Shown piece by piece: positions 9,191 through 45,171 of a DNA stretch of 47,250 bases (position 1 is the stretch's first letter; every line of letters begins with the position of its first letter). The position numbers and the translations under genes were made by a program. The stretch lies in NCBI GenBank assembly GCA_018057585.1, contig JAGPDM010000002.1:1-47250 (forward strand), given 5' to 3'. This DNA comes from Candidatus Saccharimonadota bacterium (lineage in GTDB: Bacteria; Patescibacteriota; Saccharimonadia; Saccharimonadales; JAGPDM01). Below the pieces are notes generated by a model. It made no database searches, was not told the origin of the DNA, and saw only the letters and a program-made list of their open reading frames with translations.

Positions 9191-9804
9191 TTAACTTACT
9201 ACCCGATGAACTGAAAAGACAATATGCCTACTCTAGACGCAATACTATTTTGCGCTGGACTATAATAGCAATAATCATAATCGGAGCCTCTTCGATCTTG
9301 CTTATGCTGGCTGGAAACTTCTATGTCAGCAGTCTTGCTAAAGCTGCTCAATCAGATCTAGGTGTAAAGCAAGCAGAAATATCTAAATATAAAGCCGTTG
9401 AAAAAAAGGCAAAGGATTTAAATTCTAAGGTAGAAGCCATAACTGAAGCAAACTCGAAAACTACTAAATTTTCGAGTTTAATATATGACCTTAGCAACGT
9501 TCTGCCAAAAGGTAGCAATGTTAAAACGATTTCGCTTGATGGTAAGCCTGATTCACCATTACAACTTGAAGTTACAGCCAAAGATAAGGCCACCGCACTA
9601 AAAGTGCATGATTCATTAGCTGACACTAAACGGTTCGCTTTTGTTGACATCCTTCAGTTTAAGCAAGATCCTGAGAAAGCCGGTCAATACATAGTAGCTA
9701 TTAACCTTAGTTATAAAACACCGGAAGCTGCCTATGGCCCAGTAACTAATAGCTCTAAATCGGCTATTCCTGCCAAAGGTGCTGTCAAAGGACCGATTAA
9801 ATGA
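9187..9804 (+). CDS. pilN: PilN-like pilus assembly protein
   Basis: MINLLP start, a single TM and a coiled coil, coupled to pilM by an ATGA overlap. Confidence 0.7.
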   Translation: MINLLPDELKRQYAYSRRNTILRWTIIAIIIIGASSILLMLAGNFYVSSLAKAAQSDLGVKQAEISKYKAVEKKAKDLNSKVEAITEANSKTTKFSSLIYDLSNVLPKGSNVKTISLDGKPDSPLQLEVTAKDKATALKVHDSLADTKRFAFVDILQFKQDPEKAGQYIVAINLSYKTPEAAYGPVTNSSKSAIPAKGAVKGPIK

Positions 9805-10484
9805 AACCAAAAATGACGTTTTTTATCTTGCTAATCCTGTTACTGCTCACTATGGCTGGTTCAATCGGAGGTCTGTATTTATCTAACCAAAAATTAGCAA
9901 AAAATGGCCAGGATTTGTCTAGTAAAGAAAGCCTTGTAAAAGCGGCTGACAATAGGCTTTTCCATCTAAAGGGCCTAGCAATCAAGACGAAAAAGGCCGA
10001 GTCGGCCCTGGGTGATATAGATGCTGTTTTCCCTGAAGATAAATTGCAATCAGAATTTATTGATCAAATTTCAAAACTTGCCAAAGACAAGAAAGTTAAT
10101 ATCGGCTCCGACATAAGCTTTCCTGGTGGCAGCGAAGCTCCGTCACGATCTACTCAAACTACACCATCTGGCATCGTACCTGTGCTGATTGGTATGAAGG
10201 TGACCCTGCCCGTCAGCGGTAGCTATAGTGACGTAATGTCATTCATCAAATCATTAGAGAACTTCAACCGACTTACTAACATCGAAGGACTATCACTAAA
10301 CAGCCAGGATCAGGGTAAGAATGTTGATGGCACTATCGATATACTCGTGCTCGTAAACCAAAAGTCTGCTGTTCCAGCCGCGGGTGCTGCCGGCGCTAAA
10401 GACTCAAAGTCATCGCCAAAATCTAGTACTAGCAATAGCAAACCTCAATCTTCTAGCCAATCTAACGGAAAGACCGCTCAATGA
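9801..10484 (+). CDS. PilO-like pilus assembly protein with Ser/Pro/Gln-rich tail
   Basis: N-terminal TM, position after pilN, ATGA overlap, low-complexity C-terminus. Confidence 0.5.
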   Translation: MKPKMTFFILLILLLLTMAGSIGGLYLSNQKLAKNGQDLSSKESLVKAADNRLFHLKGLAIKTKKAESALGDIDAVFPEDKLQSEFIDQISKLAKDKKVNIGSDISFPGGSEAPSRSTQTTPSGIVPVLIGMKVTLPVSGSYSDVMSFIKSLENFNRLTNIEGLSLNSQDQGKNVDGTIDILVLVNQKSAVPAAGAAGAKDSKSSPKSSTSNSKPQSSSQSNGKTAQ

Positions 10485-12417: not shown

Positions 12418-12987
12418 CTAGTTGCCTTTCCGTAGAGCTTGTTTGATCTTTTCTTCTGTCGTTTCGGCTTCAATACCGCGTAGCATCTGCATTGCCTGAT
12501 CTTTGTTATAACCAAGTGAGATAAGGGCTTCTAAAGCTTCGTCGCCAACTGGTAGCTGTTGTCCAGAAGCTTGGCTAATCAGGCTTAATTCACCCATTTT
12601 ATCTTGTAAGTCAACGATGATCCGCTCACCGGCTTTTTTGCCAACACCAGAGGCCAGGACTAAAAAGGCGGTGTTGCCAGCGGCGATTTCTGTGCGTAAC
12701 TTATCAGCAGGGCCAAGATCAAATACCGCCAGCGCAGCCTTCGGGCCAACACCGTTAACGCTCAAAAGCTGCTCGAACAAACTCTGGTCGGTTTTTGACC
12801 TAAAACCATATAACGTATGTTCTTGTTCCCTAATGTGTTCGTAGATATACATAGTAGTTTCGCTAGAAATATCTATCGAGCCGGAAAGCTCACTAGATAC
12901 CACCACGCCATATCCAACACCGTTAACATCAAGCACGATATTACGCTCGTCAAATTCAATTACGGTTCCGACTAATCTAACAATCAT
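12418..12987 (-). CDS. ruvA: Holliday junction DNA-binding protein RuvA
   Basis: 189 aa. HhH motifs (LLSVNGVGPKAALAV, LASGVGKKAGERI). Immediately upstream of ruvB. Confidence 0.93.
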   Translation of the reverse strand: MIVRLVGTVIEFDERNIVLDVNGVGYGVVVSSELSGSIDISSETTMYIYEHIREQEHTLYGFRSKTDQSLFEQLLSVNGVGPKAALAVFDLGPADKLRTEIAAGNTAFLVLASGVGKKAGERIIVDLQDKMGELSLISQASGQQLPVGDEALEALISLGYNKDQAMQMLRGIEAETTEEKIKQALRKGN

Positions 12988-13822: not shown

Positions 13823-14030
13823 AAATGACTTAAGAAAATTATAATTGTACTTGATGGCGATGACGAATCGTATAAATAGATCCAGATAAAGTCGCTAGAG
13901 CCAGCACAATTACCAGCGCACATTCCTTCCGACATAAGGCTACAGATTTGATTATAGCTTTAATGCCTAGTTAGTGGAAACCTATAATTTAAGCTCACAA
14001 ATTACTCTCAGAATGACGAAGATACCTGAT

Positions 14031-14270
14031 CCAAATCCTACCAGCGGGAATTTGTTAACTTCCTTTGTCTGGGCATAAAGGATTGAGTCCTGATATGTGA
14101 ATGTTATTTAAACAATAATACATTTTATCTTGCCCTTCGGGCCGACTGAAAGGAGTTGTTAAAATGATTGTTTCAATAACGATGAACATCTCAAGATGAA
14201 GGATCAGCCCAGGAGCTTGCGATACTTGTCGGTACAAGTATCATTCAATTTGTTACTTTGCAAAAGAAAA
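14031..14270. repeat. structured dyad-symmetric intergenic element, copy 2
   Basis: Same block order as copy 1. Hairpin GATACTTGT-cggt-ACAAGTATC. Central stems GTTATT/AATAAC, AAACAAT/ATTGTTT, CATTTTA/TAAAATG. Apical GCCC-ttc-GGGC. Ends 20 nt from the ruvC stop. Confidence 0.8.
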
Positions 14271-14289
14271 GATTGTTCAGAAGAACATT

Positions 14290-22235: not shown

Positions 22236-22778
22236 ATCGATAACAACTTTAAGCAACTAATCGAATCTATTGCCGAAGATCCAAATAGAGAAGGTCTACA
22301 GCAAACACCACAGCGGGCGGCCAAGTCATTTGCGTACCTGACAAAAGGCTACGAAGAAGATGTAACAGACATTATTAACGGAGCTATTTTTGAATCAAAT
22401 AGTGACGAAATGATAATAGTAAAAGATATCGAACTGTATTCACTGTGCGAACACCACTTACTGCCGTTCTTTGGATCTTGCCATGTTGGCTATATTCCAA
22501 ATGGAAAAATCATCGGTTTATCTAAAATCGCCAGGATCGTCGACGTCTTTGCACGCAGGCTACAGGTCCAAGAAAACCTAACTCAGCAAATTGCTGAAAC
22601 ATTGCTAGATCACACTGGAGCTAAGGGTGTTGGCGTGGTGGTTGAAGCTCAGCATCTTTGTATGATGATGCGCGGTGTCGAAAAGCAGAGCTCGTCAATG
22701 AAAACCTCTTGTATGCTTGGCAACTTCAGGAAAAACGATTCTACTCGTTCAGAATTTATTAATCTTATTAATAACTAA
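22236..22778 (+). CDS. folE: GTP cyclohydrolase I FolE (apparent non-canonical ATC start)
   Basis: [17 protein letters not shown] and CEHHLLPF motifs. The conserved N-terminal 58 codons lie upstream of the first ATG (22410). In-frame TAA at 22230-22232. GAGG at 22224-22227 lies 8 nt before the ATC at 22236. Confidence 0.8.
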
Positions 22779-24351: not shown

Positions 24352-24406
24352 AACTAGATAATAGCAAACCTCTCAATCTGCGCATATACAGACTGTCAAA
24401 AATCAA

Positions 24407-24655
24407 TCATATCCGGCCGCAGGCAAGACCTAGCCAGACAGATAAGAATAATAAAATCGAAGTAAATATTGCTAATATTATGAGCAATATACTTATACTT
24501 ATTTTAAATTTACCACTTTTATTTAGCGTTCTTATTTTGCGTAAAATATAAGCAACGACAAGCCATCCCGTAATAAAGAAGAGGAAAGCTAGAAACTGTT
24601 TAAGGCTTTTGTTTGGGTCGCATTGACCTGTTCCGAAAAAAGCAAAGTAATCCAT
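24407..24655 (-). CDS. small membrane protein (hypothetical)
   Basis: 82 aa, two TM helices. Confidence 0.35.
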   Translation of the reverse strand: MDYFAFFGTGQCDPNKSLKQFLAFLFFITGWLVVAYILRKIRTLNKSGKFKISISILLIILAIFTSILLFLSVWLGLACGRI

Positions 24656-24699
24656 GAGTTAGATTATATCAAACAGAATCGCATACACTGCACTGATAA

Positions 24700-25093
24700 T
24701 TACTGGAATGAAGGCCCAATCTTGAACTCAGAAACTTCCACTTCTGCCCAGACATTTTCGATCACGTATGGCTCCATCTCTAGGAGCGGCAAAACACTGC
24801 CAGACGCAATTATTGAGATGATACCGTTACTTCGCAGATAGTCGAACAGTTCATAAGCTCCATCACGTAGATAGTCGGACTTTTCGACTAGTTCTTCCAG
24901 GTCTTGTTTCGTTATGCCTTTTAAGAAATTTATACGTTGAACTAGCCCAGATAGACCGGTGAGGTTTCCCTCCCAAATTGCCTATTTAGCTCCATGCTTT
25001 CGACCTGCTTACCAACAGTTTTTGCAAGCAAGTCTGACATATCTTCTGTCGTTATCGTCCCATCAAAATCAATGACTACTGCTTTTGCCTTCA
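24700..25093 (-). pseudogene. HAD-IB (phosphoserine phosphatase-like) pseudogene: frameshifted and C-terminally truncated
   Basis: Frame 1: MKAKAVVIDFDGTITTEDMSDLLAKTVGKQVESMELNRQF... stops at 24942-24944. The adjacent frame continues GNLTGLSGLVQRINFLKGITKQDLEEL...IISIIASGSVLP and stops at 24700. The later HAD motifs are absent. Confidence 0.65.
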
Positions 25094-25155
25094 TAGTTAT
25101 GCACTATATCAAATCAAAGTAATTATCATGTCCACATAATTAAAAGAGGACTCTG

Positions 25156-25174
25156 TTGGAGGGCCAGGAGGGAC
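25156..25174. repeat. 19-nt direct duplicate of the tRNA-Lys 3' end (TTGGAGGGCCAGGAGGGAC)
   Basis: Identical to 25333-25351. Confidence 0.9.
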
Positions 25175-25302
25175 GACGCAGCGGAGCTGCTATTCCGTCG
25201 CTGCGAGTCTTACGAGTGAACTCGACGAGTCTCGCTCCTTACGAACCCTTTTTGCTAAAGCAAAATACGGGTTCGAAGTTCACTGCGTGAACTTGCCAAT
25301 TC

Positions 25303-25326
25303 AAAAAGTCCCCCGCTAAGGGACTT
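25303..25326 (-). terminator. intrinsic terminator after tRNA-Lys
   Basis: Minus strand: GTCCC-ttagcg-GGGGAC followed by TTTTT. Confidence 0.75.
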
Positions 25327-25333
25327 CATGAAT

Positions 25334-41514: not shown

Positions 41515-43119
41515 TTACTTAAAATCTGATATGTTTAGTGGTTTAAATATCTTTGTTTTTACTAGATCAATAAATAGATTAGCCTGCTTTAGTTTCAGAA
41601 CAACACCCGCTGCTACATAAGTAACACCGCTTGCCATAAGAATTGCCATAAATTGAGGCGCTAAAACGAAAAAGCCAACATTATCTACTCTTAGTGGGAA
41701 TACGAAACGCACCATCAAATAAGTTACGATTGCCATTGCAAATGTAGCAAGTCCGATCCGCATAACTGCATTTATAAACTTAGCAGTGATTATATGACCC
41801 AATCGCTTATGTAGTATATAGGTCAGGATGACTGCCTCAACGACGGCTACGACCGACTGAGCCAGTGCCAGTCCGCTTATGCTGTTACGGAAAAGATCAG
41901 CAAACAAAAAGGCAAGCACTATATTAAGTCCAATGGCTATAAACGAGACGTTCAGTGGTGTCTTAGTGTCCTTCTGTGCATAGAAGGCTCTAGTTAGAGA
42001 ATGGAACAGTGCCCTAAAGACGATCGCCACAGAGAACCAACCTAAAGCACTAGCAACAACGGCATTACCCTGCCCGATATATAGTCGCACCAGATAGCCA
42101 CGCATAATGAAGGCGATTACGGCCGCCGGCAAAGCAAACCACAAAATACTGCCTAGGACGTCCTTGATCGAATCGGCGAATTTCGCCTTACTGTCATTGG
42201 CAGCACTGGCTGAGATTGACGGGAAAGACGCAGTCGCAATCGCTACGCCAATCAGTATTATTGGTTGGCTCTGCAAGTTGAATGCATATGAATAAGTAGT
42301 TATAGATCCAGCGATAAAGAAGCTAGCAATAAATCTCTCCACCATCGCGTTTATAGCATCGAGTCCTTGATCTAAGCTTCTCGGTAGTAGCATTTTTAGG
42401 ACTTGCTTGAAGCCTATGTTCCTCCAGAATATTTTTGGTTTGTAATCAAAACCTAGACCAATCATGCCAATTACGTGGATTAATAGCTGTACAATTGAGC
42501 CCATGGCTAGTCCCAGTGCTACGCCGATTATCCCTAAGTGTGGGGCTAAGGTTATGATCCCAATTATTGTTCCAAAATTATAAAAGACCGGTGCAGTAGC
42601 AAAGAAGAAGAACCGACCACTCGCCTGTTGCATTGATCCAAGCACAGTACTAATCGCAAAAACAAATGGATTAATAGCTATTATCCTCATAACAGCAACT
42701 GCTAAATCATGTCTTGGTCCATCACCAAATCCCTTTGCGATCACATGAATCAACGGTCCAGCAAATATAAATATGATTATACTGCTTGCCAAAGTCACTA
42801 ATGCCATCAAGTTGATGACACTGGATGATAATTCCCAAGCAGATTTTTTGTTCCCGCTCTGCATTCTCTCAACAAAAACTGGTATGAAAGTCACACTCAA
42901 GGCTCCGGTAACTAAGAAGTAGTAGAGGAGATCAGGTAATGAAAAAGCAGCGATATAGGCCTCAAGCGATGGACTATTGATGCCAAACCTAGCGACAAGC
43001 AATCTATCACGAAGCAAGCCAAGAATAGCACTGGCAAGGTATGAACCACTGATTATTGCGGCGGCCATGCCGACAGATATTTTCGAGTTGATTTTTGTAA
43101 AGAAGCTCATCGTTAACAC
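41515..43119 (-). CDS. murJ: lipid II flippase MurJ (MviN family)
   Basis: 534 aa, 14-TM MOP-type protein. N-terminal GLLRDRLLVARFG is typical of MurJ. Confidence 0.88.
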   Translation of the reverse strand: MLTMSFFTKINSKISVGMAAAIISGSYLASAILGLLRDRLLVARFGINSPSLEAYIAAFSLPDLLYYFLVTGALSVTFIPVFVERMQSGNKKSAWELSSSVINLMALVTLASSIIIFIFAGPLIHVIAKGFGDGPRHDLAVAVMRIIAINPFVFAISTVLGSMQQASGRFFFFATAPVFYNFGTIIGIITLAPHLGIIGVALGLAMGSIVQLLIHVIGMIGLGFDYKPKIFWRNIGFKQVLKMLLPRSLDQGLDAINAMVERFIASFFIAGSITTYSYAFNLQSQPIILIGVAIATASFPSISASAANDSKAKFADSIKDVLGSILWFALPAAVIAFIMRGYLVRLYIGQGNAVVASALGWFSVAIVFRALFHSLTRAFYAQKDTKTPLNVSFIAIGLNIVLAFLFADLFRNSISGLALAQSVVAVVEAVILTYILHKRLGHIITAKFINAVMRIGLATFAMAIVTYLMVRFVFPLRVDNVGFFVLAPQFMAILMASGVTYVAAGVVLKLKQANLFIDLVKTKIFKPLNISDFK

Positions 43120-43142
43120 TAATTTTAACAGATTTGTGTGTC

Positions 43143-43330
43143 ATATTTTGTAAATATCTATTAATGATACTTGCGTCGACAAGTACCTCAATCTCGTGGG
43201 CTGGTCATAACTCTTGAGATGTTCATTGTGATAGCGACAATGACTGGAACAGAATATGTGACTAGCCCAGTGTTTAGCGACACTTAACTGCACAGGTGTC
43301 GTTAGATTTGTTTCCTTTCTAAAGAAAGGA
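43143..43330. repeat. structured dyad-symmetric intergenic element, copy 4 (shorter, palindromised variant)
   Basis: The right arm (43262-43330) is collinear with the 3' module of copies 1-3. The left arm (43163-43225) matches the reverse complement of that same module (about 36 of 45 positions against copy 2). A/T hairpins at both ends. Confidence 0.7.
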
Positions 43331-43335
43331 TAGCT

Positions 43336-45171
43336 CTATTCAGCTAGTGCAACTGTTTTTGGGACAATGCTGCCTGCAAATATTTTTAGAACATCGTCTG
43401 CGTCGACTGTCTCTTTTTCTAATAGAATGTCTGCTAGTTTCTTTAAGTATGGCTTGTTGGCGTTTATAACGTCTTCAGCACGTCTTGCAGCCTCTTGAAT
43501 CAGACCTTCAACTTCTGTATCAATCACTTTAGCAGTGTCTTCTGAGTACGGCTTATCATGAACCATACGGTCAAACATCAAGCCGCTATTTTGGTCTGTA
43601 TTAAACACGATGTCGCGTAGTTTCTCGCCCATCCCCTGCTCAACTATCATTTCTCTTGCTAACTCAGATGCTTTTTTAAGATCAGATCCAGCACCGGTAG
43701 TAACGCTATTAACACCGTAAATAACTTTCTCGGCGATTCTACCGCCTAAGATACGAGCTAATACATCTTTGTAGTCATTAATAGAATGGTAGCTTTTATC
43801 TTCTGGTGGGATTGCCCAGGTCACGCCACCAGTACCACCGCGTGGGATAATGGTCACTTTGTGGATTGGATCGCTTAACGGTAATACGTGTCCAACAAGT
43901 GCATGACCAGCTTCATGATAAGCGGTCATTTCCTTTTCTTTTTCGTTCATTATCTTGTTCTTGCGTTCTGGACCGATAGCTACCTTTTCAAAAGCTTCGG
44001 TAACATCAAGATTGTCGATCATTTTTTTATCACGGCTGGCGGCAATAATGGCAGATTCATTAGCCATGTTAGCGAGATCAGCACCACTGCTACCAGCAGT
44101 TTTAGCGGCAAGTGAGCCAAGGTCAACATCGTCGGCCACTGGCTTGCCTTTGAAATGAACTCGCAAGATTGCTTCACGATCCTTACGATCAGGCAAAGTT
44201 ATATTAACTCGACGGTCAAAACGGCCAGGACGCAATAAGGCTGGATCGAGTACGTCAGCTCGGTTAGTTGCTGCCAACACGATCACATTTGAATCACCTT
44301 CGAAGCCATCCATTTCAGTTAAAATCTGATTGAGAGTCTGCTCACGTTCATCATGGCCGCCACCCATTCCAGAACCTCTACGACGGCCAACGGCATCGAT
44401 TTCGTCGATAAATATAATACATGGTGAATTCTTCTTAGCCTTGCTAAACATGTCACGGACACGACTAGCACCAACACCTACAAACATCTCAACGAACTCT
44501 GAACCACTAATGCTAAAGAACGGAACACCAGCCTCACCGGCAACGGCCCGTGCAAGTAGCGTTTTGCCAGTACCAGGAGAACCAACTAACAGCACACCTT
44601 TTGGTATTTTGGCACCCATTTTTTGAAACTTCTTAGGATATTTCAAAAACTGCACAACTTCCGCAAGATCGTCTTTTGCCTCGTCGTTACCTGCTATCTC
44701 GGTGAAATCTACCTTCTTTTTATCTGTTCCGTAGACTCGTGCCTTAGATTTACCGAAACTCATTGCCTGATTGCCCTGGCCTTGAGCATTCTTCATCATG
44801 AAGTAGAAGAATCCAATTATGATAAACACGCTAATGAAGGGTGCGGCTAAGCTGACGCCGGTAGCAAAGCTAGTGCTCTCTGGCTTGACGCTATAATTGA
44901 ACTTGCTAGTATCAACGCCAAGCTCTTTGAGCGAAACATTTGGCTCTTTACGGCTCTTTAGAGTTGGTTTGTCTTTTCCTTCAGTCGTGATCTCTAATAC
45001 GTCACCACGCTGCGTAACTGTAGCAATTTCGCCGTCTTTGGCTCTGCTTGATAGCTCGCTGATGCTTATATCTTTAAGATCAGGGCTTTGTTGCCCGACT
45101 AAATAGACAAGCCCAATCAGTATTAAGGTTGCTATTAAAAACCCGGTTGCTCTTGATGATTTATTTTTCAT
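43336..45171 (-). CDS. ftsH: ATP-dependent zinc metalloprotease FtsH
   Basis: GSPGTGKT Walker A, the AAA second region of homology, HEAGH zinc motif. Confidence 0.97.

Follow-up and report, generated by a model that had tools for sequence, protein, structure and literature searches.

The window, by which we mean the whole 47,250-nt stretch of DNA analysed here, derives from an uncultured member of the Saccharibacteria (TM7) and carries the gene order tilS-ftsH-murJ-lepA. Both ftsH (43336-45171, stop codon at 43336-43338) and murJ (41515-43110, ATG at 43110) lie on the minus strand, separated by a spacer of 225 nt. Among GTDB species genomes, MurJ matches only Saccharibacteria relatives, at 51% identity or less; an identical MurJ was found on 23 contigs of the assembly collection, one of them labelled as a wastewater metagenome. 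Together with extensions of 5.9 kb and 9.1 kb, the window gave ~62 kb of sequence from this species. Directly before the murJ ATG, positions 43111-43150 (minus strand) read AAAATATGAC..AAATCTGTTAAAATTAGTGTTAACG, and ~45 nt before murJ are common to the window and to the 100-nt spacer of the closest relative (contig L091; MurJ 83% identical), which lacks the element described below. Because 43111-43150 is also present in this element-free relative, we regard it as native murJ leader and place the start of the inserted material at ~43151, so that it spans roughly 43151-43335. A preliminary description of this DNA had assigned to the element an A/T hairpin at 43143-43157; its stem (ATATTT/AAATAT) exists, but half of it is native leader.

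The inserted material is the fourth representative in the window (copy 4) of a family of ~245-nt repeats. Three full copies are found on the plus strand: copy 1 (610-856; R1, 271.9 bits), with its 3' end flush with the opposite-strand pilB stop; copy 2 (14028-14273; R1, 261.2 bits), with its 3' end 17 nt from the opposite-strand ruvC stop; and copy 3 (32783-33027; R1, 266.5 bits), which occupies the entire gap available to it, with a co-oriented 124-aa gene on one side and a convergent DUF3147 gene on the other. Two further full copies lie on flanking contigs of the same species (L082:2553-2804 and L100:12973-13218), giving five full copies plus the composite copy 4, or six loci, in the ~62 kb. 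The family fold begins with a 5' hairpin and an invariant closing helix, UCUGGGC/GCCCAGG (P3), and continues with a long interrupted central hairpin, a 3' hairpin, a T-tract and a small A/T hairpin. Across six distinct family sequences, 93% of cells were paired in this fold versus 38-45% in slid controls, and compensatory double changes were seen at 24 of 63 pairs, a level reached by none of 500 shuffles. The numbers of G-U and A-C combinations, compared to ask which strand folds, were 15 to 10, a ratio compatible with folding of either strand. An extra small hairpin, absent from the first consensus fold, was observed in the apical region (14130-14145 in copy 2, and equivalents), with UUCG, UUGU or UUUA loops and compensatory changes.

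In all eleven modules the 3' (terminator) end points toward a gene, meeting a stop codon at a distance of 0-43 nt in six and a start codon at ~50-130 nt in the other five, and all six stop-adjacent modules carry the T-tract on the strand opposite that gene. P7 was called by a terminator scan in copy 2, in copy 3 and in the copy 4 plus arm, and P7 energies ranged from -10 to -16 kcal/mol. At the other end, a short GC hairpin of the AATCYGC..GCRGATT type sits 10-14 nt 5' of the modelled start in four of the six full copies (copy 1, ~585-603; L082:~2533-2543; L100:~12950-12966; and L109:~1986-2004, a metagenome contig discussed below), so the element may begin somewhat earlier than the covariance model has it.

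The family appears to be non-coding, as no reading frame is conserved among its copies. A 102-aa open reading frame on the plus strand (457-765) overlaps copy 1 and is a called gene in at least one public assembly (L101:11866-12174). We considered a conserved small protein and rejected it: the frame that is open across copy 1 is closed by a 1-nt gap in copy 2, and since it is not kept in copies 2 and 3, the called gene is probably a spurious product of the repeat. Several contigs of the same species also stop inside copy 1 (L102-L105, 50-150 nt past the pilB stop) or copy 3 (L084:13355-13462). Such breaks are expected of a multi-copy repeat and are an indirect sign of many near-identical copies genome-wide.

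Copy 4 consists of two 3' modules inverted around a short core, the architecture that the preliminary description had recognized. The sense arm (43151-43245, minus strand, the strand of ftsH and murJ) corresponds to the 3' half of a family copy that has lost its T-rich tail, and contains the P5 3' strand, the joiner ATCTCAAGAG, AGCCCA and a P7 hairpin. This hairpin (43166-43187, GGUACUUGU-cgac-GCAAGUAUC, -10 kcal/mol) is followed by a weak U-tract, AUUAAUAGAUAUUU, and was not called by the terminator scan. The sole spacer polymorphism among ten contigs of the same species falls within it, at window position 43168 (sense position 168; A in three, G in seven), and either base keeps the pair (U-A or U-G). 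The plus arm (43223-43335), which runs antisense to ftsH and murJ, comprises an entire 3' module, with a P5 3'-strand homolog, AGCCCAG, P7, T-tract and tail hairpin, and it ends 5 nt from the ftsH stop, as described before. Both the terminator scan and the fold identify its P7 region (43272-43318, plus strand) as similar to an intrinsic terminator pointing into the 3' end of ftsH: the stem at 43272-43307 has 14 pairs (-16.1 kcal/mol) and leads into the T-run TTGTTTCCTT. The A/T tail hairpin TCCTTTC-taaa-GAAAGGA (43313-43330, plus strand) is the homolog of the family tail TTTCTTTGGAAAGAAA.

Between the arms, TGGGCTGGTC (43197-43206) pairs with GACTAGCCCA (43260-43269), which contains the AGCCCA core of the plus arm. 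This pairing was recovered in the minimum-free-energy folds of both strands and in the stem list, and it mimics the invariant P3 helix of the family. The junction itself is a central hairpin, TCATTGT-cgctatc-ACAATGA (43223-43243), which the preliminary description had not singled out; it emerged from the overlap of the profile matches to the two arms and from the stem list. On either strand the hairpin is homologous to the P5 3' strand (ATTGTTTCAATAACGATGA), and AGCCCA follows it at 18 nt on one side and 19 nt on the other. Overall, the features first described were present at, or within a few bases of, the positions given for them, including the TGGGCT/AGCCCA stem (43197-43202 with 43264-43269) and the TCCTTTC/GAAAGGA tail.

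Membership of both arms in the family was established with several methods. An HMM of the 3' module that used sequence only and left copy 4 out of its construction matched the minus strand from 43245 to 43160 (model positions 4-88, E=1e-15) and the plus strand from 43223 to 43335 (positions 6-116, E=4.1e-9), with no other significant match either in the ~62 kb of the species or in loci of relatives totalling ~75 kb. With a covariance model derived from copies 1-3 only, the spacer was detected on one strand at 26.7 bits (E=1e-6) and on the other at 22 bits (E=2.4e-5), and a repeat finder reported an inverted match of 89 nt between copy 2 (14157-14245) and 43163-43251 with 76% complementarity. 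In Smith-Waterman comparisons, the reverse complement of the left arm aligned to copy 2 over 97 nt (score 77, z=25), with an exact ATGAACATCTCAAGA inside the alignment, and the right arm aligned to copy 3 over 69 nt (score 50, z=14.7); neither score was reached in 500 mononucleotide shuffles. The claim that both arms match the 3' module is therefore upheld, and the left-arm similarity in particular stands above the background of AT-rich sequence.

We reached orthologous spacers through MurJ homologs at graded identity. Seven related species have short spacers devoid of family sequence: 100 nt at 83% MurJ identity (P0001, contig L091), 75 nt at 72% (P0004), 51 nt at 70% (P0003), 52 nt at 69% (P0005), 49 nt at 67% (P0007), 67 nt at 62% (P0009) and 46 nt at 55% (P0010). 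These element-free spacers of 46-100 nt, compared with 225 nt in the window, indicate that DNA was inserted here, and this presence/absence difference, which extends to the sister with 83% MurJ identity, bears out the DNA-level history first proposed for copy 4. An eighth species (P0008; contig L095, GCA_017991755.1; MurJ 64%) has a spacer of 531 nt with family sequence at 9500-9704 (minus strand) and 9706-9919 (plus strand): a near-full copy antisense to ftsH, its 3' end adjoining the ftsH stop (131 bits), and a weak remnant on the sense strand (apical-loop match with z=6.1; full-model alignment of 7 bits, E=0.008). In a neighbour-joining tree of MurJ, both element-bearing species (225 and 531 nt) have empty-spacer sisters (100 and 67 nt, respectively), and the outgroup spacer is 46 nt. 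Two independent gains are thus more parsimonious than one gain followed by at least three losses, and the eighth species seems to have acquired its element in this spacer independently.

Head-to-head arrangement of family members is not peculiar to this spacer. A contig from another metagenome (L109; WPCK01063868.1) carries two full copies head-to-head, running from 1929 to 1703 (65 bits) and from 2006 to 2245 (157 bits), between two co-oriented genes, a glmS-like gene with two SIS domains and an S10/spc-like ribosomal-protein operon. Its antisense copy ends 35 nt from the stop of the upstream gene, and its sense copy ends ~100 nt before the downstream gene. Copy 4 and this pair are the two clear cases of head-to-head pairs between co-oriented genes, and the eighth species would supply a third if its weak sense-strand remnant is real.

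On balance, we favour the interpretation that copy 4 is an eroded remnant of two different ~245-nt family members that stood head-to-head in the ftsH-murJ spacer. One indication comes from comparing the arms with each other and with the rest of the family. The arms share 59% identity over 83 aligned columns, and their direct alignment recovers only TGAC[T/C]AGCCCA (11 nt, z=1.3), which is background; by comparison, identity is 77% between the sense arm and copy 2, and 71% between the plus arm and L109a, one copy of the metagenomic pair. Since both arms have nearer relatives among the other copies than in one another, a recent duplication in place is unlikely. In the proposed sequence of events, one copy would have entered the spacer in antisense orientation to ftsH, its terminator end abutting the ftsH stop, which is the commonest placement of the family, and a second, sense-oriented copy would have settled upstream of murJ, after which both 5' halves and the long central hairpin would have been deleted. 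Because P5 is helical, the reverse complement of the P5 3' strand of one copy is a direct quasi-repeat of the P5 5' strand of its partner, and slippage between these quasi-repeats could have joined the two copies as a single long palindrome. The centre of a long palindrome is commonly lost, and such a central collapse would produce a pair of 3' modules that face outward and meet at a short hairpin. Against this reading, the arms meet exactly at one shared hairpin, 18 nt from AGCCCA on one side and 19 nt on the other, as would sooner be expected of one hairpin-mediated event than of two deletions unrelated to each other. No close relative yielded an intermediate, for example an intact head-to-head pair in its ftsH-murJ spacer, and the databases hold no relative between 83% and 100% MurJ identity.

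The same junction can be read differently. The preliminary description had proposed an inverted duplication of a single module, and a local version of this would start from one antisense copy beside ftsH: a fold-back or template switch at the P5 hairpin during replication would have copied the 3' module in reverse, the arms having diverged since. The overlap of the arms on a palindromic hairpin and its near-symmetric distances to AGCCCA are what such an event would produce, and structures like the long hairpin of the family provoke strand switching. However, arms that align to each other at background and have closer relatives elsewhere speak against a recent local event, and full-length head-to-head pairs exist, which makes a special duplication step unnecessary. 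Gene conversion among copies could cause the arms of an old local duplication to resemble other copies, and we treat local duplication as unlikely while still giving it some weight. The wider claim that copy 4 exposes a symmetry of the family resembling terminal inverted repeats did not hold up: in the six full copies, alignment of the first 80 nt to the reverse-complemented last 80 nt stayed at background (z from -1.4 to 2.2), so that terminal inverted repeats are lacking. What gives copy 4 its symmetry is instead the head-to-head position of two copies, as in the metagenomic pair, together with the long hairpin internal to each family member.

As an eroded pair, copy 4 is most likely a relic rather than a special working form, with at most incidental insulating or attenuating effects. 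With P1, P4, P6 and the 5' strands of both P3 and P5 missing, the spacer would be unable to make the family's own RNA. The hairpin and T-tract of the plus arm are predicted to stop antisense transcription before it enters ftsH. On the sense strand the hairpin is kept and the U-tract lost, which makes read-through from ftsH to murJ plausible, across a highly structured 225-nt spacer. The folding of this spacer is strong (-60.1 kcal/mol and z=-4.5 against shuffles for the sense strand, z=-3.7 for the other), but this follows from the inversion of the arms and is by itself no evidence of function.

A more active role would be that of a working, miniaturized cis-element of ftsH-murJ that attenuates or processes the transcript or supplies a promoter for murJ. 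Under this explanation, the sense transcript would re-create the core of the family (a P3-like helix, a short P5 and P7), and a new promoter would replace the old -35 displaced by the insertion; the preliminary description had likewise allowed that the element might carry or shield the murJ promoter. The stability of the sense-strand fold is compatible with such a role, and the covariance model aligns the sense strand end to end as a deleted copy (26.7-29.8 bits). The only promoter-like match on the sense strand, TTGAGG-16-TATCAT (9 of 12 positions), is directed at murJ, and the closest relative has TTGACT where the window now carries element sequence. Against this, the P3-like helix is an automatic consequence of two inverted arms, and promoter-like matches are no more frequent than in shuffled sequence (2 found versus a shuffle mean of 1.6). 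The -10 hexamer of the match is TGTCAT in seven of the ten same-species contigs, owing to the polymorphism at 43168, a single change that preserves the hairpin pairing. Moreover, seven related species manage without any such element, and the search with the 3'-module HMM found no second miniature form. We therefore consider a working cis-element improbable. Chance likeness of AT-rich hairpins or generic terminators has a negligible probability, since, although the region is AT-rich and has many short stems, a model that excluded copy 4 detected the arms at E=1e-15 and 4e-9 with no other significant match, and the alignments exceed shuffles by z=25 and z=14.7, with an exact 15-nt match within 97 nt.

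We next consider what kind of element the parent family represents. At the gathering threshold, Rfam 15 identified only two tRNAs in the whole window, and searches at E≤10 with copy 2, copy 4 and the metagenomic pair returned only noise and no family. The window also contains a region of ~1 kb beside tRNA-Lys (24352-25333) that has no open reading frame of at least 100 aa, only frames of 42-82 aa, and no Rfam match. Elsewhere in the window, a folE-like frame of 122 aa (22410-22778, plus strand) aligns with the GTP cyclohydrolase I profile, which has 179 positions, over positions 59-178 only, and is preceded by a 327-nt gap without a frame of at least 100 aa; this gene may be truncated, frameshifted or mis-started.

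Sequence searches place the family in a narrow lineage. With copy 2 as the query, blastn gave no match in phage and plasmid collections, and two pattern scans of viral contigs gave none either. A pattern for the 3' module had no match among metagenome contigs, although the same pattern does match the copies in a JGI contig of the source species, from a sample that the collection evidently lacks, and a pattern for the 5' core matched four metagenomic loci, of which only the head-to-head pair on L109 is real. Neither model detected a family member in 80 other Saccharibacteria loci (1.26 Mb), a single hit of 17 bits (L011, E=0.08) being taken as noise. Six related species (~65 kb) likewise yielded no copy, where ~6 would be expected at the density of the source species (Poisson probability ~0.002). 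The family is confined to a small clade of wastewater Saccharibacteria, and as no description of it was found in the literature searched, it appears to be undescribed so far.

Inspection of the flanks revealed no consistent target duplication and no conserved tetranucleotide; the short flanking matches CTGAT and CTAAT occur at copies 2 and 3 and not at the other copies. In the window and among the neighbours of the other copies there is no transposase, TnpB, IscB, reverse transcriptase or homing endonuclease, and annotation of neighbouring genes with Pfam and NCBIfam returned only housekeeping and pilus genes. Two other candidate features were discarded: a hammerhead-like CUGANGA, which occurs in copy 3 and L109a and is not conserved, and a common upstream promoter, in place of which the copies have only idiosyncratic AT-rich motifs resembling a -10 element. 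The family shares several traits with classical MITEs, being small (~245 nt), non-coding, multi-copy, intergenic and variably present; terminal inverted repeats are lacking.

The compensatory changes indicate that the fold matters, either for the spread of the element or for the function of an RNA, and the hairpin and T-tract at a fixed end suggest that each copy is transcribed as its own RNA. By a modest margin of confidence, we interpret the family as a selfish interspersed element that spreads in a fold-dependent manner and is transcribed as its own terminator-ended RNA, in keeping with its patchy, lineage-specific distribution, with insertions that differ between species and with assemblies that break at the repeat. 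A set of trans-acting small-RNA genes is a possible but less likely identity. More speculatively, and in our judgement with a rather low probability, the family could be a new type of self-propagating structured element of ultrasmall (CPR) bacteria whose head-to-head dimer is the transposition-competent form, with the 3' modules acting as its inverted ends. The terminator end would then dock at gene boundaries, copy 4 would be a minimal mobilizable or insulating unit, and independent insertions would have struck the ftsH-murJ spacer twice owing to a preference of the element for the ftsH 3' end as its target; we hold these corollaries at the same low level.

Several known repeats resemble the family in part. 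SPRITE, like the family, is a small interspersed intergenic repeat with a hairpin followed by a U-rich tract, and it is strongly enriched close to gene 3' ends (PMC3049150). It is also confined to one species and its nearest relatives, with partial and reverse-complement pieces turning up in searches, and BOX and RUP are further close analogues (PMC3049150). The family differs from SPRITE in that the terminator makes up no more than the final ~60 nt of a multi-helix fold of ~245 nt, in that the T-tract at gene 3' ends lies on the strand opposite the neighbouring gene, and in its host phylum; no sequence relation was seen, and none would be expected. In Correia repeat-enclosed elements (CREE), terminal inverted repeats of 26 bp are accompanied by a TA target duplication, whereas the family has neither terminal inverted repeats nor a consistent duplication and carries extra 5' and 3' hairpins outside its long stem. 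Still, CREE/NEMIS of Neisseria and ERIC of enterobacteria are comparable as abundant intergenic repeats of 100-250 nt (PMC2649163, PMC10969869). Transcripts of CREE and ERIC form a long imperfect hairpin, and these repeats may create promoters or terminators, alter the expression of neighbours and differ in presence among related genomes (PMC2649163, PMC10969869).

REP/BIME and palindrome elements of the IS200/IS605 type share with the family a structure conserved by compensatory changes and the absence of terminal inverted repeats. REP/BIME also resemble it in that inverted-orientation pairs are common, BIMEs being built from inverted REP pairs. However, REPs are ~35 nt long and spread via a Y1 transposase (RAYT or TnpA), none of which is found in the window, and the family shows no conserved flanking tetranucleotide. 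Omega RNA and HEARO, the scaffolds of IscB, IsrB and TnpB, are likewise structured RNAs of 150-300 nt linked to mobile elements, and IscB-type scaffolds end in terminator hairpins. Unlike them, the family has no nuclease gene beside its copies and no variable guide-like segment at a fixed end.

Given its clear covariation and the lack of both an Rfam family and any mention in the literature searched, the repeat is a candidate for a new structured RNA or mobile element, in a phylum in which, to our knowledge, almost no non-coding RNA biology has been described. Saccharibacteria genomes are ~1 Mb in size and have very little spare DNA, and the source lineage carries roughly one folded 245-nt copy per 10-12 kb. 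For annotation, such repeats break assemblies and generate spurious genes. Copy 4 shows that the family enters spacers as DNA and that head-to-head pairing recurs, and it suggests that head-to-head pairs decay to palindromic stubs that retain their terminator hairpins, here inside the essential gene pair ftsH-murJ.
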